Origin: an uncultured Actinomycetota bacterium
Lineage (GTDB): Bacteria; Actinomycetota; Actinomycetes; Actinomycetales; CAVURS01
Reading direction: 5' to 3'
Length of the DNA stretch: 64,000 nt
Assembly: GCA_963834425.1 (NCBI GenBank)
Contig: CAWIBR010000011.1
Coordinates: 3,308-67,307, forward strand
The position numbers and the translations under genes were made by a program. The notes under the pieces were generated by a model. It ran no database searches. It was not told the DNA's origin and saw only the letters and a list, made by a program, of their open reading frames with translations. Below are positions 9,402-59,170 of the stretch, piece by piece (position 1 is the stretch's first letter; each line of letters opens with the position of its first letter).

Positions 9402-10335
9402 CTAGCTGGCTCCAGCGTTCGCGAGGGCCTCATCCGGGTAGGCGACGAAGGCGAAGCGCGTGCTGTCGGGTGACCAGCTGTTGACGTTGATCGTGCCTTG
9501 GCCGCCGAAGAGCGGGTAGCGCTGCACGGGCACCGACCAGTCGGACGTCGCGACCACCCGCACCTCCACGTCGAGGTCGGCCGGATGACCCTGCGTGCCG
9601 GCCGGGAAGGCGATGTAGCTCGCCCACTGCCCGTCGGGAGAGAGGTGCGGGAACCAGTCGACCGTGTCGCTGGCGACCAGCCGCTCGACGGGCCCGAATC
9701 CTCGGTCGCCGCCATCCGGGATGCGCGCCAGCTGGGCGTGGCCGGGGGCCTGCGTGAAACGTCTCGGTGTTGAGGTAGATCCAGCGGCCGTCCGGGGACC
9801 ATTCCGGCCCGTCCAGATGGCCCCGGCCGACCTCGACGACGGTCGTTGGGCCGCCCAGGGCGAGGATCGCGAGCCGGCCGGGCTCGGCGAAGTCGCCGAT
9901 CCGGACGTAGGCCAGCCGCTGCCCGTCCGGCGCGACGCCGTGCAGGAAGTGCCAGACGCCTTCATCGGTCGTGACCCGCTGCACCGGGCCGCCGGTGAGG
10001 GCGCCGCGATAGATGTGGCCGTCCATCGCCGAGGCGTAGATGTGCTCGCCGTCGGGGTCGAGCACGTGGTCGTTGTTGAGCTCGGGCAGCCCGTCGAAGT
10101 CGATCCGCACGAGCTCGCTGTGCGATTTTCCCGGGAGCTCGCGGCTCGGCGTACCGAGGTCGAGTCGCCACAGCTGCCCGTGTCCGTTGAGGTAAAGGGC
10201 TCGCCCGTCCAGCGACCAGTTCGGCGCCTCGATCAGCATCTCGCCGGTCTCGAAGACCAGCTCGGGGTCCGAAATCCCTGGCCCACCAAGGAAAACCTGG
10301 GCGCGCTGCCCGTCAGCGAGCGTCCGGTAGGTCAT
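9402..10335 (-). CDS. TolB-like PD40 beta-propeller protein (frameshift near 9760)
   Basis: Repeats EAPNWSLDG, DGPEWSPDGRWIY, WFPHLSPDG and NVNSWSPDS across two frames. Confidence 0.82.
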
Positions 10336-12642: not shown

Positions 12643-13262
12643 GGCTGCGCGGTGAGGCCTTCGGCCTCGGCGACCGAGGGCACGGTGTCGGCGCCGAAGA
12701 CCTCCAGCCGGAAGTCCCGCTCTTCGTGCAGCACCAGGCGACTCAGGCCGGATCCCTCGGCGACCAGCCGCTGGGCGACGTCACCCGAGAGCGGGTAGTC
12801 GGCGACGGGATGCAGCCAGTGGCAGAGCAGGAGGACCCCGTCGTCGGTCAGTGAGGCAGCTGCCTTCCGGCCCAGCTCGCGCGCGCCGGATTCATCGCAG
12901 TAGTAGGCGATCTCGGACACGACGATCAGGTCGAAGCGACCGTCCGGCCAGTCCTGCGGGATCTGGAGCTGCCGGATGGTCACGCCGTCCCGGCCGGCCA
13001 GCCGGGCCCGCGCCGACTGCAGCGCGGTCGCGCTGACGTCCGCGCTGAGCAGCTCGTCGCATCGGTCCGCGAGCTGCTCGCTCAGCAGACCGATCGAGCA
13101 GCCAGGTTCGAACGCCCGCCGGAACCGCCGTCGGGGGAGGCTGGCCATGGTCACGGCTCGCTTGCGCGTCTCGTACCAGCGACCGGTGAAATCCCACGGG
13201 TCTGGGCTCGCGGCGTACAGCTGGTCGAAGTACGCCGCGGGGAGCGCGCCGTCGGTCACCAC
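12639..13262 (-). CDS. NodS-like SAM-dependent methyltransferase
   Basis: YFDQLY...DPW...WYETRKR, EPGCSIG and FDLIVVSEIAYY motifs. Confidence 0.85.
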   Translation of the reverse strand: MVTDGALPAAYFDQLYAASPDPWDFTGRWYETRKRAVTMASLPRRRFRRAFEPGCSIGLLSEQLADRCDELLSADVSATALQSARARLAGRDGVTIRQLQIPQDWPDGRFDLIVVSEIAYYCDESGARELGRKAAASLTDDGVLLLCHWLHPVADYPLSGDVAQRLVAEGSGLSRLVLHEERDFRLEVFGADTVPSVAEAEGLTAQP

Positions 13263-14302
13263 GGTGCCCTGTCGGCCGCCAGGAGCAGCTGGCCTAGCCG
13301 CGCCGAGTCGCGTTCGGCGTGGTGCTGGCGGACGTAGAGCTGCAGGTCCGCGATCCGGCGGGTGTGCTCCTCCTCGACTGCCAGGGGCCCGGGACCGAGC
13401 GTGTGTCCCGCGGCCTCGATGACGGATTCGACTGCAGCAGCGACGATCCCGCGCACCCGCTCGGCCAACACGACACCCGCCGGGCCGTCAGCGTGGCCGC
13501 GGTCGATCCGGTCGGCGGTGTCGGCGAGAGCCAGGCGACAGGCCGTGACGTGCAGGTCGATCCGGCCCAGGTGCATCGTCGCGATCTGGTCGGGTTCGCG
13601 GGACGAGGCGGCGGCCCAGACCCGCCGGGCCACGCCGATCAGGCCGCCGTACCAGCAGGCGGCGACGCCCAGGCCGCCCCACGCGAAGCCGGGACGCGTG
13701 AGGTACCAACCGGTTTCGCCGACCGGGGTGGCTGGCGTGTGGTCCAAGGCGATCGAGGTGCTCCGCACGTCGGCCAGGCCGCGAGCGACCCACCGATCGT
13801 CGCCGGCACCCACCGTCGGTGACGTCAGGTCGATGGCGAAGAGCCGGCGTCCGTCGCCGACGTGGGCCGTGATCAGCGCCCGGTCGTTGAGGTCGGCGGC
13901 CGAGCACCACGGTTTGGTGCCGCTGAGCCGCCACCCGTCAGAGGTCTCCGTCGCGTCGATCCGCAGGCCCGGACCCTCGGCGGCATAGACGCCCCACACG
14001 GCCCGGTCCTCGACGTGCTCGGCTCCGCTCTCGGCCAGGATGGCCAGGGCGTCGAGGTGTGCCTCGGCGATCCGGGCGACCGAGAGGTCACCGGCGGCCA
14101 GGCTGGCCAACAGCTCCCAGCGCTCGAGGGTCCGCCCGCCCGCCGGCGCGGCGACACCGGCGCTCAGCCCGCGGGCCAACTCGACCGCCGCGGCCGCGCG
14201 CCCGCCCGTGCCCTGGGCCGCCGCCGCGAGATCGTCCAACCGAGTGGGCCCGCCGCCATGGGGTCCGTCGACGGGCCGCAGGTGAACGGCGGTCGCCTTC
14301 AT
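13256..14302 (-). CDS. Acyl-CoA dehydrogenase-like flavoprotein
   Basis: ARIAEAHLDA, WRLSGTKPWCS and DLQLYVRQHH motifs. Confidence 0.8.
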   Translation of the reverse strand: MKATAVHLRPVDGPHGGGPTRLDDLAAAAQGTGGRAAAAVELARGLSAGVAAPAGGRTLERWELLASLAAGDLSVARIAEAHLDALAILAESGAEHVEDRAVWGVYAAEGPGLRIDATETSDGWRLSGTKPWCSAADLNDRALITAHVGDGRRLFAIDLTSPTVGAGDDRWVARGLADVRSTSIALDHTPATPVGETGWYLTRPGFAWGGLGVAACWYGGLIGVARRVWAAASSREPDQIATMHLGRIDLHVTACRLALADTADRIDRGHADGPAGVVLAERVRGIVAAAVESVIEAAGHTLGPGPLAVEEEHTRRIADLQLYVRQHHAERDSARLGQLLLAADRAPW

Positions 14303-15150
14303 GCGGATGCCTCGGTGAGGGCCGGCAGAGCCGGCGGCATCAGCCGACTGGGCAGGGCGTGCGGCATCGAGGCGCTGTGGGCGTCGTTCGGCAGCAAGCA
14401 GGCGCGCAGGTAGCCGGCGAAGCCGCCCGCCTCGACTCGCCCCTCGGGACGCCCACTCGTGCGGACGGTCGCCCCGCGTGAGGCGACGACGTGCCAGCCG
14501 CGCGTCTCGGCGGCCCGGACGAGGCTGACGTCCTCGTGGGCCGCGCGGCCGGCAAACCCGCCACAGTCGAGATAGCAGTCAGCCCGGATCCCCAGGTTGG
14601 CGCCGTGCACGTGCGGGTGCCCGTCAACGCGGAGATAGGCGGCCCGCCACGCGGCGTACCGGGTCGGTCCGCACTCGATCTGGTCAGGGTCGACCAGGCC
14701 GCACACCAGGTCGGCTCCGGCGTCGGCCTGGCCCACCTGATGGATCAGCCAGTCCCGCGGGACGCGAGAGTCCGCGTCCGTATTGAGGATCCACGTCTGG
14801 GCGGCCGCTGCCGCCGCCGTGAGCTCCAGGCCGTGGGCGACGGCGACCGACCGCGCAGCGCCGACTCGGCCCACCGCGGCGTGGAGGGTCCGAACCCACG
14901 GAAAGCGGGCGACGACCTCGGCCGTCCGGTCGGTGCAGCAGTCGAGGGCGGCGACCGTGATGACCCGGGGGACCGGCCGCCGCTCGAGTTGGGCCTCGCG
15001 CTGGAGCGCATCGACAGCCAGCCCGATCGAAGCTAGGCAGCCGCCGACGCGCGCAGCCTCGTTGCGCACGGGGACGGCGATCAGGATGTCGGCGATGTCC
15101 GACCGACCGCTCTGGCCGGTCGCTCGACCTCGGGCCGGCAGACGCGACAT
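14299..15150 (-). CDS. GT2 family glycosyltransferase
   Basis: VPVRNE, NTDADS (DxD), HVHGANLG and GGF...HED motifs. Confidence 0.85.
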   Translation of the reverse strand: MSRLPARGRATGQSGRSDIADILIAVPVRNEAARVGGCLASIGLAVDALQREAQLERRPVPRVITVAALDCCTDRTAEVVARFPWVRTLHAAVGRVGAARSVAVAHGLELTAAAAAAQTWILNTDADSRVPRDWLIHQVGQADAGADLVCGLVDPDQIECGPTRYAAWRAAYLRVDGHPHVHGANLGIRADCYLDCGGFAGRAAHEDVSLVRAAETRGWHVVASRGATVRTSGRPEGRVEAGGFAGYLRACLLPNDAHSASMPHALPSRLMPPALPALTEASA

Positions 15151-17012: not shown

Positions 17013-17428
17013 GTCCAGGCCAGCCGCAGTTCGAGCAGCTCCGCGAGCGGTGCCGACTCGCCGTCGCGGGCACCGACTCCGGAGATCAGCGGCGGCGGGG
17101 ACGGCTCGATGGAGACCGTCCGCCAGCGGCCAAACGCTTGCGGCGCAACGGAAAGCACGTAGTAGTGACCTTCGGCGTCGACGCCGATTGAGTGATCGCG
17201 GCGGAGGTACCAGCCGACGATGCCGGTCCGATAGCGACCGCCGCCGGACCATGGGCGAGCGGTCAGCTCCTCGGTCGCCAAACCGGCGGCGGTGGCCCGC
17301 CGTACGAAGTCGTCGACCAGCAGCTGGGCCTGTGCCGACTCCTGCTCCCGACGTCGCTCCAGCGCGCGGGCGTGGTAGTCCGCCTGCTCGGCGAGCTGCT
17401 CCCGCCGCTCGATCGCGTCGTCGGCCAC
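17009..17428 (-). CDS. Hypothetical protein
   Basis: 139 aa ORF with ATGA coupling to the aminotransferase gene; GWYLRRDHSIGVD segment. Confidence 0.65.
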   Translation of the reverse strand: MADDAIERREQLAEQADYHARALERRREQESAQAQLLVDDFVRRATAAGLATEELTARPWSGGGRYRTGIVGWYLRRDHSIGVDAEGHYYVLSVAPQAFGRWRTVSIEPSPPPLISGVGARDGESAPLAELLELRLAWT

Positions 17429-17444
17429 CGGCCCACCCTAGGAC

Positions 17445-18425
17445 GTGGCCCGACGTGAACAGTGGGCGCTGGGGCTGTTCCTCGCCGTCGTCGGCTCCGT
17501 AGGCTGCCACGGTGCCCAGTCATCATCGCACGACCATCAGCACGGCCATCCCCTGAGACTGGACGGGCTCGACCTCGCCGGCCACCGGATCGGCGAGGAC
17601 CACGACGACGACCCGATCCTGCTCGCCCCCGACGGCCGACCGGTCGACACCTGGCGGGAGAACTACCCCTACGAGGAGCGGATCGACCGCCGGGACTACG
17701 ACGAGCAGAAGTACCTGCTCCAGGTCGAGCTGCTCAAGCTGCAGAACTGGGCGGTGGAGACCGGCAGCAAGCACGTCATCGTCTTCGAGGGTCGTGACGC
17801 TGCGGGCAAGGGCGGCACCATCAAGCGGTTCATGGAGCACCTCAACCCGCGCACCGCCCGGGTCGTCGCGCTGGCCAAGCCGACCGAGCGCGAGCGCGGC
17901 CAGTGGTACTTCCAGCGCTACGTGCACCACCTGCCCACCGAGGGCGAGATCGTGCTCTTCGACCGCAGCTGGTACAACCGCGCCGGCGTCGAGCGAGTCA
18001 TGGGTTTCGCCAGCCAACAGGAGTACGACGAGTTCATGCGCCAGGCCCCGCTCTTCGAGCACATGCTGAGTGAGAGCGGCGTCCACGTCACCAAGTTCTG
18101 GTTCTCGGTGACCCGGTCCGAGCAGCGCACCCGCTTCATCATCCGGCAGGTCGACCCGGTCCGGCAGTGGAAGCTGTCGCCGATCGACCTGGAGTCGCTC
18201 GGCAAGTGGGACGACTACACCGAGGCCAAGGAACAGATGTTCCGGCTCACCGACACCGACGAGGCGCCCTGGACGACGATCAAGTCCAACGACAAGAAGC
18301 GCGCGCGCCTGAACGCCATGCGCTCCTTCCTGGTCCAGTTCGACTACGCGAACAAGAACGACCTGGTCGTCGGCACGCCCGACCCCCTGCTGGTGGCCCG
18401 CGGGATCGACGCCGTCGGCGACTGA
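17445..18425 (+). CDS. ppk2: Polyphosphate kinase 2
   Basis: FEGRDAAGKGG Walker A, WYFQRY, FDRSWYNRAGVERVMGF, WKLSP.D and SNDKKRAR; true start uncertain. Confidence 0.93.
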   Translation: MARREQWALGLFLAVVGSVGCHGAQSSSHDHQHGHPLRLDGLDLAGHRIGEDHDDDPILLAPDGRPVDTWRENYPYEERIDRRDYDEQKYLLQVELLKLQNWAVETGSKHVIVFEGRDAAGKGGTIKRFMEHLNPRTARVVALAKPTERERGQWYFQRYVHHLPTEGEIVLFDRSWYNRAGVERVMGFASQQEYDEFMRQAPLFEHMLSESGVHVTKFWFSVTRSEQRTRFIIRQVDPVRQWKLSPIDLESLGKWDDYTEAKEQMFRLTDTDEAPWTTIKSNDKKRARLNAMRSFLVQFDYANKNDLVVGTPDPLLVARGIDAVGD

Positions 18426-30712: not shown

Positions 30713-31745
30713 TCAGCCGGCCTGCTCCAGGTAGCCGTCGATCTCGCTGAGGATCGCCCGCTTGCGCTCGTCGTCGGCGAACGACTGCCGGACCGATGAC
30801 CGGGCGAGCTCGGCCACGCCGGCCCGGTCCAGGCCGAGCAGCTCCGCGGCCACGGCGTACTCGGTGGTGAGGGTGGTGGAGAACATCGGTGGGTCGTCGG
30901 AGCCGATCGAGAACGGGACTCCGGCCGCCGCGAGGGCGGGCAGCGGATGAGCGGCCAGCGAGGGCACGGACCGGGTGCGGACGTTCGAGGTCGGGCAGAT
31001 CTCGAGCGGGATCTGCTTCTCGGCGAGGTATCGGACCAGCTCGGGGTCGTGGATCGCGTTGATGCCGTGGCCGATTCGCTCGGCGCCCAGGAGTCGGACG
31101 GCGTCCCACACCGTCTCCGGGCCGGTCGACTCCCCGGCGTGGGGCACGCTGTGCAGGCCGGCTGCGCGCGCCTGGGCGAAGTGTGGCTCGAACCAGGCCC
31201 GCGGTACGCCGACCTCCGGGCCGCCGAGGCCGAAGCTGACCAGGCCAGTCGGGGCGTTGCCGCAGGGCCAGGTCCAGCGTCAGGTCGGCCGCGGGGACGC
31301 CGGACTCGCCCGGGATGTCGAAGCACCAGCGCAGGGTCAGGTCGCGCTCGGCCTCGATGGCCCGTCGCGCGTCCTCGACCGCCTCGCAGAACGCCTCGGC
31401 CGCGATCCCCCGCGTCACCGACGAGTACGGCGTCAGGGTCAGCTCGGCGTACCGGACGTTCTGGTCAGCCAGGCCGACGCCGATGTCGTGGGTGAGCGTC
31501 CAGACATCCTCGGGCGTGCGGATCAGGTCGACCACCGAGAGGTAGACGGTGATGAAGTGCGCGAAGTCGGTGAACCGGAAGTAGTCCGCGAGCAGAGCCG
31601 GGTCGGCCGGGACGTCGGTGCTGCCTTCGTGGCGAGCGGCGAGGGATGCGACCGTCTCCGGGGTCGCGGAGCCGACGTGGTGCACGTGCAACTCGGCCTT
31701 GGGCAGGCCCTCGATGAAGTCGATCAGGTCGGGGGAGGTGGCCAC
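30713..31745 (-). CDS. Adenosine deaminase family (frameshift near 31250)
   Basis: LPKAELHVHHVGS, NVRYAE, PHAGE, ERIGHG, EICPTSN and SDDPPMF motifs. Confidence 0.9.
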
Positions 31746-47769: not shown

Positions 47770-48282
47770 ATGCGCAAGGCAGCCATCATCGGCACCGCAG
47801 CACTGGTCACGGTCGTCGTCAGCGGCGTCGCCGTGCAGCAAGCTCAGGCCAGCTCGGCCGGCTCCAAGCCCGCGGCGCAGCACCACTCCAGCTCAGGCCA
47901 GCAGCACGGTACGACGACCTTCACCGTGGTCGAGCACGCCGTCACCGACACGGTGGCCGACACCGGCCCGACCGGCGACAGCCTCGGCGACGTGCTGGCC
48001 TTCGGCAACCCGATCTTCACGGCCAACAACAAGACCCACATCGGCAGCGACAACGGATCGTGCATCCGCACGACGGTCGGCAAGGCCTGGGAGTGCTCCT
48101 GGACGCTGACCCTGGGCAAGAGCTCGCTCGTGGTCGAAGGCCCGTTCTACGACACCGCTGACTCGGACCTGGCGATCATCGGCGGCACCGGCGTCTGGGC
48201 CACCGCTCGCGGTCAGATGCACCTGCACGCGCGCAACGCTGCGGGCACGGCGTACGACTTCGTCTACCACGTGACCCGCTAG
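47770..48282 (+). CDS. Secreted allene-oxide-cyclase/dirigent-like barrel protein
   Basis: Signal peptide; GDSLGD.LAF.NP, G.DNGSC.R, EC.WT and LAIIGGTG.W..ARG motifs. Confidence 0.78.
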   Translation: MRKAAIIGTAALVTVVVSGVAVQQAQASSAGSKPAAQHHSSSGQQHGTTTFTVVEHAVTDTVADTGPTGDSLGDVLAFGNPIFTANNKTHIGSDNGSCIRTTVGKAWECSWTLTLGKSSLVVEGPFYDTADSDLAIIGGTGVWATARGQMHLHARNAAGTAYDFVYHVTR

Positions 48283-50391: not shown

Positions 50392-52771
50392 TCAGTGCCG
50401 CCCGCCCGCGACCAGGGTCGTCGTCGGGGTGCTGAAGGCGGTGAGGAAGCGGTTGCGGAACGCGTCCATCGGCCAGACCGGAGCGTCAGCGGCCGGCCGC
50501 AGTCCCGGCTGCCAGCCCCAGGACGCGATCTGGTCGAAGACGGCCGGGTCACGGGCGACGATCGAGATGGGCACGTCGTGGGTCGCGCCGGGTCCACTCA
50601 CCTTCGGCGCCGGCTGGTGGTCGCCGAGCAGCACCAGCACCAGGTTGGGGTCGTCGGCGTTCTGCACGAACGAGATCAGCGACTGGATCGAGTACTGGAT
50701 CGACTCGCCGTACGACGCCCGCACGTTGTCGTAGTTCTGGTAGAGCTCGCCCACGGTCGGGCCCTGCGCGGGCATGGGGTCGAAGATCGACCCGTCGCCC
50801 AGTGCGTCCCAGGGGACGAGGTGCGGCAGCGGGGTCCACGGGTAGTGCGACGACACCAGGTCGATCTCGGCCATCACCGGTGCGTGCCCGGGTCCGAGCT
50901 CACGCTGCTGAAAAGCCTTGAGGGTGAACTGATCCGGCACTTTCGCATAGGAGAAGACCGGCCCGTGATAGCCGGTGTTCAGCCCGTTGTAGACCTGGGC
51001 GTAGTGATAGAACGACGTGCCCTCCGGCCAGGGACCCAGGTCGGACGGGTCATCGGCGACCGTGCGCCAGCCGGCCTGCTTGAAGGCATCGCTCAGGGTG
51101 TAGCGGCTGCTCTTGACCAACTGGTTGTAGCGCTGCTGGTTGTCGATCCACAGCCCGGACTGCAGCGTCGAGTGCGCCAGCCAGCTCAGGCCACCGAACG
51201 TGGGCGAGGTCAGGAACGCGCTCCGCGAGGTGTAGCCGGCGGCGGTCAGGGCCTTCGTGCCGCTGGCCAGGACCGAGTCGATGCCCGGGGCGAAGGTCGA
51301 GCCCTGCACGGCCGTCTGGCCGTAGCTCTCGACGAAGGCGACGATCACATCCTTGCCGCGCAGCCCGGTGAGCAGGCTGGCCGTCGGCGTCTGGCGCTGG
51401 GCGTCGGCGCCGACGAGCTGCTCGGGGAAGAGCTGCCGATCTCGCGCTGCCGCAGCGATATTGCGGACTTCGGTGGCGGCGAAGCCGGACGTGGATCCGG
51501 AGGCGACCGGCGTGCGCGGCTCGACGTCGATGCCGACCGTCGCACTGCCGACCCAGATCAGCGCCAGCGCGCCGACGACCCAGGCCGAGCCGCGCCGGTG
51601 GGTGGCGCTCAGCCGGGCCACCCTGCAGGGTGGCCCAGGCGAGCAAGGCCATGACGGCCACGGCCAACAGACCGGCGGCGCCGACCTCGGCGTACGCCCT
51701 CGTCGGCCCCACCGAATCGCGCAGAACCCCGATGGCCGGACCGAGGCTGCTCCACTCGACCACCGGGTTGAAGGCCCGGTCGAGCTCGGCGTAGTAGCCC
51801 ATGTCGAGGACCTTGAGCAGCACCAGGAGGCCGAGGACGGCACCGGCGGTGGCGGCCAGGATCTGCCGGGCCCGGCCGGGCAGCACCAGCGCGGCCGCGG
51901 CCAGGACGAGCCCCTCGACGGGGATCTGCACGAAGGTGCGCGCGGAGAGCCGGCCGAGCTGGTCCGGCCAGGCCAGCGCCGTCCAGACCATCGCGATCGC
52001 CACGACCGTCAGCGCCCGGCCGGCCCAGAGCCGCGCCTGCACCTGTCCGGCCGACGGTGTGACCTCGCGCGCGCGGCTCCGGTGGCGCGCCAGCCACGCG
52101 ATCTGGCGGCCGAACGACTCGGCGAGCAGGGCCAGCGCCGCGAGGGCCAGCGCCGTCGCGGCCGCCTGCGGCAGCCAGCCGGTGGCGATCACGATGAGGA
52201 CCACGCCCTGGGTCGCGGCGACCACCTTGGCCCAGTAGCGCGGCGGGGTCGACGCGCCCAGCCAGGGCCAGACCAGCGTGGCCGCCAGCAACAGGTAGCG
52301 GGCCAGTCCGATCACCAGCACCCAGGCCCCGACGGCCGGGGCGACGGCAATGCTGAGCACCAGGATCAGCAGCGCATCGACCTCCATGTCGAAGCGCGCG
52401 CCTACGTCCGATGCCGTGCCGGTACGCCGGGCCAGCCAGCCATCGACGCCATCCAGGGCGAGCGCCACCGTCGCCAGGCCGACGAGGGCAACGAGCCGTG
52501 AGCCGCTCAACGACCGGCCGAGCGAGTCGGCGACCAACGCGGCGACGCCGCCGATGAGGGCGCCGCGCGCGAGCGTGACCTGGTCGGCCGGGCGCCGCCG
52601 GCTCAGGTCCGACCGGGCCAGCGCCCGGCCCAGCAGGACCAGGATCGCCGCGTCGCAGGCAGTTCCGACCAGCCAGCCCCGAGCGCCCAGCCCGACGGTG
52701 ACCGCGAGCCCGACCAGCACGATCAGCGCCAGCCCGAGGCCGGGGAGCAAACGCGCTCGAACGGACAGCAC
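50392..52771 (-). CDS. CDP-alcohol phosphatidyltransferase fused to a membrane-anchored sulfatase/alkaline-phosphatase-fold domain (frameshift near 51625)
   Basis: [10 protein letters not shown]...G.RFDMEVD motif, in-frame TM region, then [24 protein letters not shown] and GDHQP. Confidence 0.82.
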
Positions 52772-52874
52772 TTCGTCTCCGTATCTGGGGGGTATACATC
52801 GTCCTACGGCGGATCTGAGTCGGGCGTTCACTGGCCGCACCACGCGACCACTGGCAGAGGAGGTCGTTGGCGCG

Positions 52875-53850
52875 ATGGCTGTCTCCGCACGCGCCTTCTG
52901 GCTCCGAGCGCCGGGCGAGGGGGAGATTCGCCCGGTCGATCTGGCTGAGCCGGGGCCGGGAGAGGTCCTCGTGCGCACGTTGTTCTCCGGCATCAGCCGC
53001 GGGACCGAGGCGCTGGTCTTCCGCGGTGGCGTGCCTGCGGCCCAGCGGGAGACCATGCGCGCGCCGTACCAGGAGGGTGAGTTCCCGGGCCCGGTGAAAT
53101 ACGGCTACCTCAATGTCGGCCTGGTCGAGTCCGGACCGTCGGAGCTGCTCGGCCGCACCGTGTTCTGCCTCTATCCCCACCAGACCCGTTACGTCGTGCC
53201 CGCCTTCGCGGTCACCGTGGTTCCGGATGGTGTGCCACCCCGTCGGGCCGTCCTCGCGGGCACGGTCGAGACGGCGGTCAACGCGTTGTGGGACGGCCCA
53301 CCGCTGATCGGCGACCGGGTCGCGGTCGTGGGCGGCGGCATGGTGGGCGCCTGCGTGACTCGGCTGCTGGCGGGCTTCCCGGGGGTCGGCGTGACGCTGG
53401 TCGACCCGAACCCGACGCGGGCTGCGCTGGCCGAGACGTTGGGCGCGGCGTACGCCTCGCCCGAGCAGGCGCCGCGAGAGCTCGACCTGGTCTTCCACGC
53501 CAGCGCGACGGCGGCCGGCCTGCAGCTCTCGCTCGACCTGCTGAGGCGGGACGCCACCGTGGTCGACCTCAGCTGGTACGGCGATCGCCCGGTCAGCGCT
53601 CGACCTGGGCGCGGCGTTCCACGAGCGGCGGCTCACGGTGCGGGGCAGCCAGGTCGGGACGATCGGCGCGGCGCGGCGATCCAGCCGCACCACCGAGGAC
53701 CGGTTGAGGTTGGCCTTGGATCTGTTGCGGGACAACGCCTTCGACGCGTTGCTGACCGGGTCGTCCCGGTTCGAAGATCTTCCGGCGACGATGGCCGGCA
53801 TCGAGACGATGGACGGCTTGTGTCACACGATCGACTACGAGGGGGAGTGA
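52875..53850 (+). CDS. Zinc-binding alcohol dehydrogenase (MDR) family (frameshift near 53600)
   Basis: [26 protein letters not shown] and VVGGGMVG motifs. Confidence 0.85.
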
Positions 53851-53855
53851 GCGCG

Positions 53856-54254
53856 ATGTACAGCGTGACGGTGCGCGACTCGGTGATGATCGCCCACAGC
53901 CTGGACGGCGAGATCTTCGGTCCGGCCCAACGGATGCACGGCGCAACCTACGTCGTCGACGCGACCTTTCGCGGACCGGAGCTGGACCCGAACGGCATCG
54001 TCGTCGACATCGGCCGGGCCGGCGAGCAGCTGCACGCGGTCCTGGCCGACCTCAACTACCGCAACCTCGACGACGAGCCGGCGTTCGCCGGGGTCAACAC
54101 GACCACCGAGATGCTCGCTCGCACCATCGCCGACCGGCTGGCCGAGCGGGTGCACGCGGGCGACCTCGGGGCCGCGGCCGGCCGGCTGACCGGGATTGTC
54201 GTGACCCTGCGCGAGACGCACGTGGCGTGGGCGTCCTACGAGCGAGCCCTGTGA
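53856..54254 (+). CDS. 6-pyruvoyl-tetrahydropterin synthase/QueD family, PTPS-IV-type
   Basis: MIAHSL....[23 protein letters not shown] and LRET motifs; lacks the QueD CxxxHGH. Confidence 0.85.
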
Positions 54255-55334
54255 CCGACGCTGCCGTGGGCGCTGTGACTGGTGCTGCCGTGGCGCACCT
54301 GGTCGTGCCGGCCGGCTACGACGATCCGCAGCGAGCCAGTGGTGGCAACGCCTACGACCGCGAGGTCCACACGGGGCTCGTCAGGCGCGGCTGGTCGGTC
54401 GCGGTCCACCCGATTTCGGACGCCTGGCCGTTGCCGCACAACGGAATCGGGACTGCGATCGACAGCGAGCTCGCCAGCATCCCGGCCGGCGGGGTCGTCG
54501 TCGTGGACGGGCTGTTGGGCGGGGTGGCCGCCACCGAGCTGGTCCGGCACGCCGCCCGGCTGCGGCTGGTGGTGATGGTGCACATGCCGGAGCCGCCGGG
54601 CGCACCGCCCGGCCCAGTGCTGCGGGCTGCGCGACTAGTGATCGCCACCAGCCAGGCGACCGGCCGGGCCTTGACTACCGAGCATGACCTGGCCCCCGCG
54701 GGACTGCTCGTCGCACCTCCGGGTGTGACGTCGGCCGAGGCGGCGGTCGGCACACCGACTGGAGGTGCGCTGCTCTGTGTCGCGGCGGTCAGCGCGGCCA
54801 AGGGGCACGACGTGCTCTTTGCGGCGCTCGCCGAGCTGACCCGGCGTACGCCTCGGGCGTGGTCCTGCGTCTGCGCAGGCGACCTGGACCGGGACCCGGA
54901 TTTCGTGGACCGACAGCGGCGGGAGCTGGCCGAGCGCGGGTTGTCGGAGCGGGTGCACCTGGCCGGGACCCTGGCCGGGGCGCAGCTCGACCGGGCCTAC
55001 GCTGCGGCCGACCTGCTGGTCCTGGCGTCGCGGCATGAGGGCTACGGGATGGTCGTCACTGAGGCGTTGGCGCGTGGGCTGCCGGTGATCGCCACCGCAG
55101 TCGGCGGCGTGCCCGAGGCACTCGGCCACGCGGCGCGGTGGGCGACGGCCAGGGATCCTGGTGCCGCCCGGCGATGCCGATGCGTTGGCCGCCGCGGTCT
55201 CCGGCTGGCTGGACGACGCCGAGCTGCGTGAGGAGCTGCGGGCCGTGGCCCTGGACCGGCGGGCGGGACTGGCCGGCTGGCCGGCGACCGTCACGGCGAT
55301 CTCCGCAGCGCTGAGCGGCCTGGCGGTCGCGTGA
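54251..55334 (+). CDS. GT4 family glycosyltransferase (frameshift near 55140)
   Basis: SGGNAYD, KGHDVL and [20 protein letters not shown] motifs. Confidence 0.87.
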
Positions 55335-55396
55335 TGCTCACCGGTGAACTGCAGCGCCGCGCCCCGCGTAAGCATCACGTGACCGGGCCGGCAGGG

Positions 55397-56467
55397 GTGA
55401 GCGCAGCGATGACGGCCGGGGCGACCGCCCGGGCCGGTCGAGGCCTGAGCAGCGAGGTGCGTGCGCGCATCTGGCGGTGGGCGCGGCTGGCCGGAGGTCT
55501 CGCCATCCTGGCCCTGCTCGTCGTCCGCCTGGGCGCCACGCCGTTCGTCGACGGGCTGCGCGAGGTAGATGCCCGATCGTTGCTCGCGGCCCTGGCCATC
55601 ACGGCGGTGACCACGGTCGTCTCGGCCTGGCGCTGGCGGCTGATCGCCCGGGGCCTCGGCCTGCCGATCCCGCTGGGCCGCGCCGTCGCGGCGTACTACC
55701 GCTCGCAGTTCCTCAACAGCGTGCTGCCCGGCGGTGTCCTGGGTGACGTGCATCGCGGCGTCCGGCAGGGCGAGGAGGGTCACGACGTCTCGGCCGGGCT
55801 GCGCAGCGTGGCCTGGGATCGGGCGGCCGGCCAGGTGGTGCAGGTCGCGCTGGCGGTCGTGGTGTTGCTCGTGTTTCCCTCGCCGGTGCGGACGGCCCTG
55901 GCCGTGACCGCGGGCGCCATCACCGCGGTGCTGTTGGTGTTTGCGGTGGTGGTCCTGCTGATGCCGTCTCGTGGCCGCTCGTGGCCGGTCCGGTTCGCCC
56001 GGACCGCGCGCGCCGACGTCCGGGCCAGCCTGCCGACCCGGCGGGTGGGGGTGGCTGTCTTCGCAGCGTCGTCGGTCGTCGTGGCCGGGCACGCCGCGGT
56101 CTTCCTGGTCGCGGCCCGGACCGAGGGCACCACAGCGTCGTTGAGCACCATGGTGCCGATCGCGATGCTGGTGCTGCTGGCCATGACGGTGCCGACGAGC
56201 GTTGGTGGTTGGGGGCCGCGTGAAGGCGTTGCGGCGTGGGCCTTTTCGATGGCCGGGTTAGGAGCGGCCCAGGGCGTCGCGACGGCCACCGTCTATGGCG
56301 TCCTGAGCCTGGTGGCCACCCTGCCGGGGGCCGCCGTGCTGGTCCGGAGGTGGTGGCTGCGCCGCGCCGCCCGGGCCGCGGCGACCATCGACCGCCCCGA
56401 GCCGGCGCGCACCCTGGTGGTCATCGGGAGGTCCGGCGCATGGCTGACCGGCCCTACACCCTGGTGA
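55397..56467 (+). CDS. Lysylphosphatidylglycerol synthase TM (UPF0104, flippase-like) protein
   Basis: AWRW, FLNSVLPGGVLGDVHR and P.SVGGWGPREG motifs. Confidence 0.85.
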   Translation: MSAAMTAGATARAGRGLSSEVRARIWRWARLAGGLAILALLVVRLGATPFVDGLREVDARSLLAALAITAVTTVVSAWRWRLIARGLGLPIPLGRAVAAYYRSQFLNSVLPGGVLGDVHRGVRQGEEGHDVSAGLRSVAWDRAAGQVVQVALAVVVLLVFPSPVRTALAVTAGAITAVLLVFAVVVLLMPSRGRSWPVRFARTARADVRASLPTRRVGVAVFAASSVVVAGHAAVFLVAARTEGTTASLSTMVPIAMLVLLAMTVPTSVGGWGPREGVAAWAFSMAGLGAAQGVATATVYGVLSLVATLPGAAVLVRRWWLRRAARAAATIDRPEPARTLVVIGRSGAWLTGPTPW

Positions 56468-57133
56468 GCTGCTGCATGTCGCTCGACGGGTACCTCGGCA
56501 GCAGCACCGAGCCGCGGCTGCAGTTGTCCAACGACGAGGACTTCGACCGGGTCGACGAGGTGCGGGCCGGCTGCGACGCGATCCTGGTCGGCGCTGGCAC
56601 GGTCCGCGCCGACGACCCCCGGCTCACGGTCAAGTCGGCCGCACGGCGCGAGGAGCGGTTGGCGGGCGGGCGCACCGGCTCGCCGACCAAGGTCACGCTC
56701 ACCCGCTCCGGGCGCGTGGACGCACGCGGCGCGTTCTTCCACGCGGGTGACGGTGAGCGGCTGGTCTACTGCGCCAGCCCGGCCGCGGCCGAGCTGGCCG
56801 GACGACTGGGCTCGCTGGGCACGGTCGTCGATGCCGGGCCGGACGTCGATCTCGGTTTCGTCGTTCGGGACCTCTCGGCGCGGGGGGTCGGGCGGTTGAT
56901 GGTCGAGGGCGGTGGCACCGTCATCACCGCCTTCCTGATGGCCGAGCTGGCCGACGAGCTGCAGCTGGCCGTCGCTCCGCTGTTCGTCGGCGACCCGCTC
57001 GCCCGGCGGTTCGTCGACGACGGCCCGTTCCCGTGGACGGCTCGCGAGCCGCGCCCGGCTGGCGGAGGTCCGGTCGATCGGCGATGTTGTCCTGATGCGC
57101 TATGCCCTCTCGCCCCGGTTCGGGTCCGCATGA
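56440..57133 (+). CDS. RibD C-terminal-type pyrimidine reductase (frameshift near 57050)
   Basis: SLDGY, DAILVGAGTVRADDP.L and LMVEGGG; natural end GDVVLMRY...* in a shifted frame overlaps the next ATG. Confidence 0.85.
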
Positions 57134-57765
57134 GCGGGCGGCCGCCGGAGGCGACGGTGCGCCGAGCCGTCGTCGTACCGTTGCGGTTCGGCGACTTCGT
57201 CACGCCGGGCCGGCTGGTCACGTTCGACGGGCTGGTCGACGGGCGCGAGCACCTGGCCATCGGGCTCGGAGAGCCGGGCTCCGTGCCGCTGGTCCGCCCG
57301 CACAGCGAGTGCCTGTCGGGCGACGTCTTCGGCAGCGAGCGCTGCGACTGTGGGCCACAGCTGCGCGAGGCGGTCGAGCGGATCGCGGAGGTTGGGGGCT
57401 ACCTGCTCTATCTGCGCCAGGAGGGTCGCGGGATCGGGCTCTACGACAAGCTCGACGCCTACGCCCTGCAGGACCAGGGCCTGGACACCTACGACGCCAA
57501 CCTGGCGCTCGGGCACGACTGCGACGAGCGCGACTACACCGCGGCCGCGCAGATGCTGGTGGCCCTCGGTGCCCGGCGGATCGCGTTGCTGAGCAACAAC
57601 CCGGACAAGCGGCAGCAGCTGCAGAGCAACGGGATCGAGATCGTCGAGGAAGTCCCGACCGACCTGCACCTGTCGGCGGACAACGCGCGCTACCTCGCGA
57701 CCAAGCGTGAGCGTGGCGGCCACACCCTGCGCGACGTCGTTCACGCCTTCGACCCGGACGCCTAG
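57130..57765 (+). CDS. ribA: GTP cyclohydrolase II family
   Basis: RPHSECLSGDVFGSERCDCGPQL, YLRQEGRGIGL..K, LLSNNPDK and YL.TK....GH motifs. Confidence 0.92.
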   Translation: MSGRPPEATVRRAVVVPLRFGDFVTPGRLVTFDGLVDGREHLAIGLGEPGSVPLVRPHSECLSGDVFGSERCDCGPQLREAVERIAEVGGYLLYLRQEGRGIGLYDKLDAYALQDQGLDTYDANLALGHDCDERDYTAAAQMLVALGARRIALLSNNPDKRQQLQSNGIEIVEEVPTDLHLSADNARYLATKRERGGHTLRDVVHAFDPDA

Positions 57766-57871: not shown

Positions 57872-59170
57872 ATGGCGGGAGAGCGGGGCGGCGGCGGACC
57901 GGTCAGCAACGCGGTGTTTGCGGGCGGATTGGGGGCCCTCGCCGGTCTGGCGCTCAGCGGCGGACGCGGTCGGCGAGGGGCCATCGAGGGCGCCATCGGC
58001 GGCGCGGCGGCGCTGGCGGCGATCGACGCGTGGAGCCGGGCTCGGTTGGGGCCCAACGAGATTCCGCGCCTGCCGGGCCGGATCGCCGCGAGCGCAGCCA
58101 TCGCCGCTCCGCTGGGCTGGGTCGCCGGTCGGTTCAGCGGTCAGGGGCCGCGAGTGATCGGTACGGCGGCGGGCGCGGCCGCGGGCCTGCTCGGGCTGCG
58201 TCCGCAGAAGGTCGCGCTCGGCCCAGCCGTCGGCCTCGCGGTCGGCGTCGCCCTGGAGCGTCGCCGCGCGCCGGCCGCCGTGGTCGCAGCGGCGAGCGTG
58301 GCGTCGTACCGCGTGGTGTCGGCGTTGCTGTTCCGCGACGCCCAGGTGAGCCTGCTTGCGGAGCGGGCCCGCGCGGAGGATCTGCCGTTCGTCGTGCCGC
58401 TGGAGTCGCGCACCCGCTACGTCGGCACGAGCTACGTCCGAGAGCTGGCCGGAGTCCTGGGTGGGGACTACCAGGCGGCGGCGCCCGACGTCGGGATCGT
58501 GGCCTCCATCGACGAGCTAGCCGGCCCGGATTTCGAGCCCGCCCAGGTGGATCCGCTCGTTCGCGAGTTCTACGAGCACACCACCCGGTTCCGCCTGGAC
58601 ATCGTCCCCGAGTGGCGCCTGTGGGTGCGCCCGGGCTACCTGCTCTATCGCGCCTTCGTGGCCCGACCGCTCGGGCAGGCCAGCGTGCCGATGAACCAGC
58701 GGGAGGCCCAGCGCGGCGTGCGCAGCCGGATCGACACCATCACCTCGGCGGCGAGCGAGGAGGGTCCGGCGCTCGACATCCGCGGGTGGATCCGGTCCTA
58801 CGCCGACACCGACGAGCCGATCTACGTCGGCATCTACACGACCTATCGCAGCGAGGGTCGCGGCTACGTCAGCGTGGGCTTTCCGTTGCCCCAGGCCAGC
58901 TTCACGGCGACCCTGACCCCCCGCGCCCGGCCCGATGGCGGCCTGGTGCTGACGAGTCGCAGCGACCTAGGCCAGCCTGGGCACTACCTCTCCTACATCG
59001 ACGCCGAGACGCGCGAGCTGACCACGCTGGCCGTGCCTGGTTTCAGCGAGGAGCTGGATGTCTACGCCGACGGTGATGGGTTGCGCGCCGAGCATGCGTT
59101 CTGGGTCTTCGGTTTTCCGTTCCTCGTGCTGCACTACGACATCCGCCGCAAGCCGCTCAGCGCGGACTGA
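57872..59170 (+). CDS. Hypothetical protein (Gly/Ala-rich membrane N-terminus, YndJ-like C-terminal domain)
   Basis: [17 protein letters not shown] and YVG.Y...GY.SV.FPLP motifs. Confidence 0.65.

Follow-up and report, generated by a model that had tools for sequence, protein, structure and literature searches.

The window analysed here, a 64,000-nucleotide (nt) stretch of a contig from an uncultured Actinomycetota bacterium, carries at positions 50392 to 57765 a seven-gene cluster that contains a PTPS-IV gene. Genes for an MDR-superfamily dehydrogenase-like protein, PTPS-IV, a GT4-family glycosyltransferase, a flippase-like membrane protein, a RibD_C-only pyrimidine reductase and GTP cyclohydrolase II (GCHII) run in one direction, and a gene that joins a CDP-alcohol phosphatidyltransferase to an LtaS-like module runs in the other. 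We favour, with modest confidence, the reading that this cluster is a self-contained pathway which turns a GTP-derived pyrimidine into the head group of an exported membrane lipid, and which does not make riboflavin. Since the same gene order recurs in 80 loci of other genomes, the arrangement lies far beyond chance.

In the proposed pathway, GCHII would convert GTP to 2,5-diamino-6-ribosylamino-4(3H)-pyrimidinone 5'-phosphate, as its family membership and conserved catalytic residues suggest, and the deaminase-less RibD_C protein would reduce the ribosyl to the ribityl compound with the 2-amino group kept, as its similarity to archaeal and fungal diaminopyrimidine reductases suggests. PTPS-IV and the MDR protein may then modify the product, perhaps through redox chemistry on the side chain or through pteridine ring closure, which we offer as a suggestion only. 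The GT4 protein would add a sugar, and the CDP-alcohol phosphatidyltransferase would couple the alcohol to a phosphatidyl group at the inner face of the membrane. By analogy with MprF, the flippase-like protein would move the lipid outward. The LtaS-like domain would then act in the manner of lipoteichoic acid synthase and primase, passing the phospho-head group to an acceptor outside the cytoplasm, or polymerising it there, with release of diacylglycerol. An earlier note on this DNA had proposed such a route from GTP to a lipid-linked surface modification; gene content, residues and co-occurrence fit it, whereas the reaction order and the parts played by PTPS-IV and the MDR protein are what we infer. 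A more specific and distinctly more tentative proposal is that the product is a new envelope molecule, namely a glycosylated phospholipid with a GTP-derived ribityl-diaminopyrimidine, or a pteridine derived from this, as head group, which in lineages with the LtaS-like module would give a teichoic-acid-like, nucleobase-derived polyol phosphate outside the cell.

Riboflavin and F420 pathways in the genus

Gene content was compared among five genomes of the genus, consisting of the present assembly (G000; 4.11 Mb, 82.9% complete) and four others, one of them 100% complete. G001, G002 and G003 are of the same genus as G000, and G012 represents another family of the same order. Searches of G000 for lumazine synthase (PF00885), DHBP synthase (PF00926) and riboflavin synthase (Lum_binding, PF00677) gave no match, so that the statement of the earlier note that no lumazine or riboflavin synthase is present holds for the window and for the whole assembly, and DHBP synthase is likewise missing. 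Lumazine synthase was found in none of the four other genomes of the genus (0/4, including the 100% complete one), and DHBP synthase in none of the five (0/5). The GCHII of the window is the sole GCHII in the assembly, and the GCHIIs of the four other genomes are of the cluster type only.

Exactly one FMN riboswitch was found in each of the five genomes. In G000, this riboswitch (C13:1321589-1321719, locus L104) precedes, on an unbroken contig, an NMN_transporter (PnuC-family) gene that lies between the ribulose-phosphate 3-epimerase gene (rpe) and hisE/hisG, with no riboflavin biosynthesis genes there. Actinobacterial rib operons usually sit between rpe and hisE/hisG, and the genus looks like a riboflavin importer in which biosynthesis has been replaced by a riboswitch-controlled transporter. 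The separate canonical rib operon that the earlier note had suggested looking for was not found in this genome, the usual rib locus holding the FMN riboswitch and the PnuC-type transporter in its place. That note had also stated that its model would fail if these were the only riboflavin genes of the genome. They are indeed the sole ribA- and ribD-like genes in the assembly, yet the whole pathway is missing from the genus; because the genus lacks the rest of the riboflavin pathway and has a riboswitch-controlled transporter instead, these sole genes argue for a role other than riboflavin synthesis. Outside the genus, G012 carries the cluster and a canonical ribBA-ribH operon in one genome, and G033 carries a cluster without GCHII and a canonical GCHII elsewhere in the genome.

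A link of PTPS-IV to F420 was considered as well. The review PMC5041015 states, citing unpublished work, that PTPS-IV acts in F420 synthesis. CofH/FbiC (TIGR03551) was found in none of the five genomes searched for it (G000 to G003 and G012), and judged by gene content the F420 link is not supported in these genomes.

Enzymes of the cluster and their conservation

For the synteny set, a scan of GTDB species genomes for PTPS-IV gave 441 relatives, and 80 loci were retained and inspected over 10 kb on either side, incomplete loci being counted as they stand. Micromonospora, Streptomyces, Amycolatopsis, Pseudonocardia, Actinomadura, Thermoleophilia and Solirubrobacterales are represented among them. 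The MDR gene was present in 80 of the 80 loci, directly upstream of PTPS-IV, the GT4 gene in 79, the flippase-like gene in 75, RibD_C of either type in 72, the CDP-alcohol transferase in 64, a methyltransferase in 62, GCHII in 60 and the LtaS-like module in 42. The lipid enzymes, which the earlier note had counted as members of the cluster, therefore belong to its conserved core (flippase-like protein and CDP-alcohol transferase). In an even sample of the phylum that included G000, PTPS-IV was detected at E<=1e-20 in 14 of 401 genomes and 8 of 249 genera, and it is an accessory trait in the phylum.

The GCHII matched NCBIfam NF001591 with 247.8 bits (cut-off 148). When aligned with E. coli RibA (2bz0), it showed a conserved Cys-triad zinc region, Tyr105 (in AYALQD) and Arg128 (in DERD). 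The best NCBIfam model for the RibD_C protein was the archaeal diaminopyrimidine reductase TIGR01508 (125.5 bits, cut-off 186.45), and its structural matches 5xv5 and 6p8c (the best) and 2azn outscored bacterial RibD; a literature search on 5XUX/5XV5 found no naming paper for 5xv5, a 'Conserved protein'. Pfam searches of the window and of the annotated loci found no deaminase domain in the RibD_C reading frame or in any cluster gene scanned.

The residue at the position of Tyr105 and the gene content of the cluster were found to vary together. Of the 60 GCHII-bearing loci, 46 show Tyr here and none of these (0/46) has a creatininase-like gene, while Met (eight loci), His (four) or Leu (one) occurs at this position in 13 loci, all of which (13/13) have such a gene; one incomplete locus has Ser there and no creatininase-like gene. 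Spoonamore and Bandarian reportedly found that S. coelicolor SCO6655, in which the Tyr is absent, stops its reaction at the formylated product. The creatininase-family gene of the sister clusters weakly matches ArfB (2e-9), and PMC9478397 describes a creatininase-family formamidase in bacterial riboflavin synthesis. The pattern points to both types of cluster delivering the same deformylated diaminopyrimidine as a committed intermediate. The window has neither the methyltransferase nor the cluster-type creatininase gene, and the whole assembly has no homologue of the cluster methyltransferase and only a 29%-identical creatininase-family gene elsewhere; both genes occur in related clusters and are missing from this copy, just as the earlier note had stated. 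Another GCHII, 68% identical to that of the window, was seen outside any PTPS-IV cluster in locus L018 (G013:C16, 6897-14741), where it shares one open frame with acyl-CoA-dehydrogenase-like domains, is flanked by two RibD_C paralogues and adjoins bioA-, bioD- and bioF-like genes; the PTPS-IV of G013 is on another contig.

The assignment to PTPS-IV, a subfamily of COG0720, that the earlier note proposed was borne out. The translation carries FGPAQ and matches PDB 3D7J (S. coelicolor SCO6650) at 2.1e-55 over its full length (residues 1-132). Aligned with mammalian PTPS, the protein has other residues in place of the catalytic Cys and of the final His in HGH and keeps the TTE motif, whose Glu presumably anchors the pterin; it is a T-fold protein that has retained this motif and lost the metal and Cys machinery of PTPS. 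SCO6650 itself is said, by Spoonamore and Bandarian, to be without zinc. The GTP_cyclohydro2 and RibD_C domains lie 2.2-3.5 kb downstream of the PTPS domain in the same operon. PMC5445326 gives FGPAQ as the PTPS-IV signature that replaces the Cys-x3-5-HGH motifs of PTPS-I, II and III, and it reports a PTPS-IV neighbourhood with PF00925 and PF01872, so that the clustering of PTPS-IV with ribA paralogues, as the earlier note had it, is both in print and visible in 60 of the 80 loci.

The intact orthologue of the MDR protein in G003 matched ADH_zinc_N with 21.9 bits (cut-off 31.8) and BchC with 58.6 bits (cut-off 291), both below threshold. The protein has a GGGMVG nucleotide-binding motif, and its N-terminal region reads SGISRGTE, a stretch that we take to be the place of the usual Cys/His zinc ligands of MDR enzymes. 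As judged from its motifs, it is a distant MDR-like protein that appears to lack the usual catalytic zinc ligands and, by domain criteria, is not a zinc-dependent MDR alcohol dehydrogenase. The nearest solved relatives of the GT4 protein include MshA and BshA. In the flippase-like protein, LPG_synthase_TM spans residues 54-333 of 378, the aminoacyl-transferase domain is absent, and NCBIfam TIGR00374 (flippase-like domain) scored 41.3 bits, just below its cut-off; by these domain matches, the protein shares the flippase-type domain of MprF and is not an MprF.

The divergent gene encodes a CDP-alcohol phosphatidyltransferase joined to a sulfatase-fold domain of the alkaline-phosphatase superfamily. 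Its first part matched CDP-OH_P_transf (PF01066) with 48 bits (cut-off 22) and holds the motif D(x)2DG(x)2AR(x)8G(x)3D(x)3D, the D, G and R positions of which are invariant in an alignment of 34 sequences. Hydropathy gave about six membrane segments in the transferase part and five before the sulfatase-fold domain, or about 11 in total; where the LtaS-like part stands alone in other loci, the domain is preceded by five hydrophobic segments, which is the layout of LtaS. A profile built from 39 sequences of the domain (L066 and L079 were left out, as they contain stop codons) had the Listeria lipoteichoic acid primase LtaP (4UOP, E 2.2e-6) as its sole PDB match, and a single-sequence PDB search with the intact fusion protein gave nothing significant. 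Pfam Sulfatase was matched by 27 of the 39 sequences. In their alignment, E99, S147, H151, H260 and D335 are invariant and H336 is present in 36 of 39, and on this likeness the sulfatase-fold part is classed as an LtaS-like module.

Given 11 segments and a transferase site that would be cytoplasmic, the LtaS-like domain should lie outside the cell. The earlier note had listed a sulfatase fold for this gene and proposed transfer to an extracytoplasmic acceptor; the position of the LtaS-like module after about 11 hydrophobic segments fits transfer outside. Transferase and module form a single protein in this genus, in G012 and in one Thermoleophilia locus, and in Micromonospora the module is a separate gene adjoining the transferase. 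Such fusions are usually read as two activities that work together. A Solirubrobacterales locus (L064) has two LtaS-like copies (13189-14385 and 17138-18325), one fused to a CDP-alcohol transferase and the other stand-alone with five hydrophobic segments.

Gene layout and single-base insertions

The G+C content of the window is 70-75%, and long open reading frames (ORFs) occur in every frame. Because high G+C gives long ORFs in all frames, gene models were set from codon-position G+C together with Pfam matches. All genes of the run listed in the earlier note were found, and its limits, 50392 and 57765, coincide with the two outer stop codons.

Table 1. Features of the PTPS-IV cluster, in positions of the window
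Feature	Position	Strand	Basis or remark
CDP-alcohol phosphatidyltransferase + LtaS-like fusion	50392..52771	-	Pfam CDP-OH_P_transf, Sulfatase
Divergent intergenic region, ~95 nt	52772..52865	none	between two operons
MDR-superfamily NAD(P)-binding dehydrogenase-like protein	~52866-53850	+	two frames joined at 53595
PTPS-IV, SCO6650 orthologue	53856..54254	+	Pfam PTPS 83.6 bits
GT4-family glycosyltransferase	54227..55334	+	Pfam Glycos_transf_1 84.6 bits
Flippase-like membrane protein	55331..56467	+	Pfam LPG_synthase_TM 123.7 bits
RibD_C-only pyrimidine reductase	56440..57133	+	Pfam RibD_C 131.7 bits
GTP cyclohydrolase II (GCHII), 211 aa	57130..57765	+	Pfam GTP_cyclohydro2 (PF00925) 185.5 bits

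With gene ends read from the sequence, PTPS-IV and GT4 overlap by 28 nt, as do the flippase-like and RibD_C genes. The GT4 stop codon (55332-55334) overlaps the start of the flippase-like gene, and RibD_C and GCHII share ATGA at 57130-57133, within which the true stop codon of RibD_C lies. In the divergent intergenic region, no Rfam match was found at E<=1 (searched from 52600 to 53000), nor any sigma-70-like promoter site or meaningful terminator-like site.

Four 1-nt insertions, of which the earlier note makes no mention and which change the frame without introducing a stop codon, were located near 51624 (CDP-transferase/LtaS-like fusion), 53595 (MDR), 55135 (GT4) and 57045 (RibD_C), so that four of the seven cluster genes are frame-broken within 7.4 kb. 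Owing to the insertion near 55135, the final ~60 residues of GT4 are read in another frame, and the one near 57045 puts the last 27 codons of RibD_C into the frame of GCHII, which yields a single ORF of 509 aa (table 11). In G001, G002 and G003, RibD_C and GCHII are separate genes with an ATGA overlap, and the overlap is retained in the window; the RibD_C-GCHII fusion in this assembly is apparent only and is caused by a 1-nt insertion. All four genes are uninterrupted in the same-genus genomes, and three of the four also in G012. The CDP-transferase/LtaS-like fusion forms one intact frame in G001, G002, G003 and G012.

The insertions were checked by aligning short-read metagenome contigs of relatives (92-99% alike) to the region, uncovered parts carrying no weight and runs with small shares (X3-X20) giving no indication of habitat. 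At 51624/5, contigs without the base made up the whole depth in run X1 (two contigs, 13.7/13.7), run X2 (three contigs, 8.1/8.1) and run X3 (one contig, 6.15/6.15). At 53595 the same held for one contig of X3 (4.7/4.7), X1 and X2 being without depth there. The base was missing at 55134-6 from two contigs of X1 (11.9/11.9) and two of X2 (7.07/16), and at 57045/6 from one contig of X1 (4.8/4.8) and two of X3 (4.78/9.85). Every contig of a relative that crosses the four sites thus lacks the extra base, with part of the depth unassigned at two sites. In addition, same-strand unterminated frame switches were counted. G000 has 254 of them, or 11.0 per 100 kb of called coding sequence, as against 3 in 44 isolate loci (0.55 per 100 kb) and 9 in 33 loci from metagenome-assembled genomes (3.3 per 100 kb), which makes the rate of G000 about 20 times that of isolate loci; the screen is crude and flagged one of the four cluster sites, so that it undercounts and the rates are relative. 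Codon-position GC is strongly coding on both sides of each break, and none of the insertion sites (0/4) lies within a homopolymer run. Because the excess of frame switches is genome-wide, assembly indels are the likeliest cause; the four insertions are probably assembly errors, and the cluster is probably intact in the organism.

Some further observations concern these breaks. Two of the insertion sites are centred on perfect palindromes, of 16 nt around 51624 (51612-51636) and of 12 nt around 57045 (57033-57057), and a systematic base-calling or polishing effect may be involved. At 56421, near the 3' end of the flippase-like gene, a base is missing from one contig of a relative that is 92% alike, and this may be a fifth insertion in the window or a difference of that relative. 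Two more candidate frame switches lie in the window outside the cluster (9683-9833 and 31193-31343), and gene calls on the G000 assembly are often split or falsely fused, as expected from the frame-switch excess.

Around the cluster, the neighbouring sigma factor, lactonase, glyoxalase and SDR genes are not conserved with it in the 80 loci. Directly downstream of GCHII, a 432-aa ORF (57872-59170, + strand) has no Pfam or NCBIfam match; a protein of 77% identity occupies the same position in G003, and none was found in the G001, G002 and G012 loci or in the 80 loci. A 170-aa protein (47770-48282, + strand), which adjoins a lactonase-like beta-propeller protein, shows weak similarity to two plant-type families, allene oxide cyclase (34.8 bits) and dirigent (33.4 bits), in both cases just above cut-off.

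Rival readings, known systems and significance

Several points weigh against the lipid head-group pathway. No product, lipid or acceptor has been observed in any source searched, and the review PMC5041015, as noted above, assigns PTPS-IV to F420 synthesis on the strength of unpublished work. The LtaS-like part is present in only 42 of 80 loci, and surface transfer may be lineage-specific. In the window, the sulfatase-fold domain scores 24.6 bits, 0.4 below the Pfam cut-off of 25; a Thr is aligned to the nucleophile region of LtaP (SNT) in only 33 of 39 sequences, and the topology comes from a crude hydropathy count. The CDP-transferase profile matches solved structures over the signature motif only, the best being choline/ethanolamine phosphotransferases (6e-5), and donor and acceptor are therefore not definable from sequence. 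The RibD_C protein stays below the TIGR01508 cut-off (125.5 versus 186) and also matches 4xrb/Rv2671; RibD_C proteins can act like dihydrofolate reductase, and the pathway may instead take a pterin route. A quick tree of GCHII, from which three loci with short or stop-containing matches were left out, puts the non-Tyr group at one change (support 77) and two changes overall, and because of these counts the Tyr/creatininase pattern amounts to one or two events and not to many independent tests. Lastly, the contigs that lack the inserted bases come from relatives 92-99% alike that may be other strains, and the frameshifts may after all be real in this one.

Other readings of the cluster were weighed against these data. 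One of them, to which we give a low probability, holds that the cluster yields a glycosylated pterin or pyrimidine in soluble form (a cofactor, a pigment or a compatible-solute-like phosphodiester) and that the membrane enzymes serve otherwise or use a soluble acceptor for a CDP-activated alcohol. Cyanobacterial pterin glycosides, which are made by a PTPS, a reductase and a glycosyltransferase, offer a parallel; the most constant core of the loci is MDR, PTPS-IV and GT4 (80, 80 and 79 of 80), the solved GT4 relatives MshA and BshA glycosylate small molecules, and the best solved matches of the CDP-transferase profile use CDP-alcohol donors. However, constancy is almost as high for the flippase-like protein (75/80) and the CDP-alcohol transferase (64/80), the annotated loci showed no cytidylyltransferase, and the transferase is fused or adjacent to an LtaS-like module, the known relatives of which use lipid donors. 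We also regard it as rather improbable that the four insertions are real mutations in pseudogenes that are decaying in this strain and yield no product. The excess of frame switches (254 versus 3, at about 20 times the rate of isolate loci) is genome-wide and not specific to the cluster, the coding signature of codon-position GC continues past every break, neither stop codons nor larger deletions have accumulated, and all same-genus copies are intact; these points stand against the density of breaks in so short a cluster, the position of the insertions outside homopolymer runs, and the origin of the base-lacking contigs in relatives that may be another strain. Very improbable, and contradicted by the data presented here, is the view that GCHII and RibD_C serve riboflavin or deazaflavin (F420) synthesis and that their neighbours are unrelated. 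It can appeal to their being the sole ribA- and ribD-like genes in the assembly and to the unpublished work behind the statement in PMC5041015, but no genome of the genus (0/5) yielded DMRL synthase or DHBP synthase, G000 has no Lum_binding match, there are only the FMN riboswitch and the PnuC-type transporter at the usual rib locus, CofH is found in 0/5 genomes (G000-G003, G012), and there is no deaminase for a uracil-type precursor.

Among known systems, the closest is the SCO6650-SCO6655 region of S. coelicolor, of which SCO6650 (3D7J) is a full-length orthologue of the PTPS-IV described here (2e-55). Three Streptomyces loci (L059, L077 and L102) share the core of MDR, PTPS-IV, GT4, flippase-like protein, CDP-alcohol transferase, RibD_C and GCHII. 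In contrast to the window, clusters of the Streptomyces type have an additional creatininase-like gene and a methyltransferase, Met or Leu at the Tyr105 position of GCHII, and a CDP transferase without the LtaS-like part; the window type keeps the Tyr, lacks both additional genes and has the LtaS-like fusion. The pairing of PgsA with LtaS/LtaP follows the same logic, in that a phosphatidyltransferase acts inside and the head group is then used by a five-segment protein whose alkaline-phosphatase-fold domain faces outward. The likeness is remote (2.2e-6, by profile only), and here both activities are fused, the proposed head group is GTP-derived and not glycerol phosphate, and any polymer would be a putative one. 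With MprF the cluster shares the LPG_synthase_TM flippase domain, and flipping would be analogous, but the window protein is without the aminoacyl-tRNA-dependent synthase domain. The early steps of archaeal and fungal riboflavin synthesis (GTP cyclohydrolase III with ArfB, and reduction before deamination) are likewise similar, since the reductase most resembles TIGR01508, 6p8c and 2azn and a creatininase-family gene accompanies the non-Tyr GCHII of the sister clusters. Unlike that route, the cluster has no deaminase, lumazine synthase or riboflavin synthase, and it continues into glycosyl- and lipid-transfer enzymes.

To our knowledge, the PTPS-IV/GCHII neighbourhood has been acknowledged as being of unknown function since the S. 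coelicolor work of 2006-2012. A literature search found no paper that names a product of the cluster, the supplementary PTPS neighbourhood networks of PMC5445326 lying outside that search. What is already known, from PMC5445326, is the neighbourhood of PTPS-IV with GCHII and RibD_C. This copy adds the fusion to an LtaS-like module, a riboflavin-auxotroph background, the pattern that links Tyr and creatininase, and the tracing of the apparent RibD_C-GCHII fusion and of the three other breaks to single-base insertions that are probably artefacts.

The cluster occurs in major antibiotic-producing genera, namely Streptomyces, Micromonospora and Amycolatopsis. In what looks like a riboflavin-auxotrophic host, the GCHII and reductase of the cluster can have no riboflavin role, and the committed intermediate suggested by the pattern of residue and genes is the deformylated diaminopyrimidine. 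The fusion of a phosphatidyltransferase with an LtaS-like module predicts a phospholipid head group that is used outside the cell. If the proposed pathway is true, its product would be a new lipid head group and might form a new surface polymer as well.

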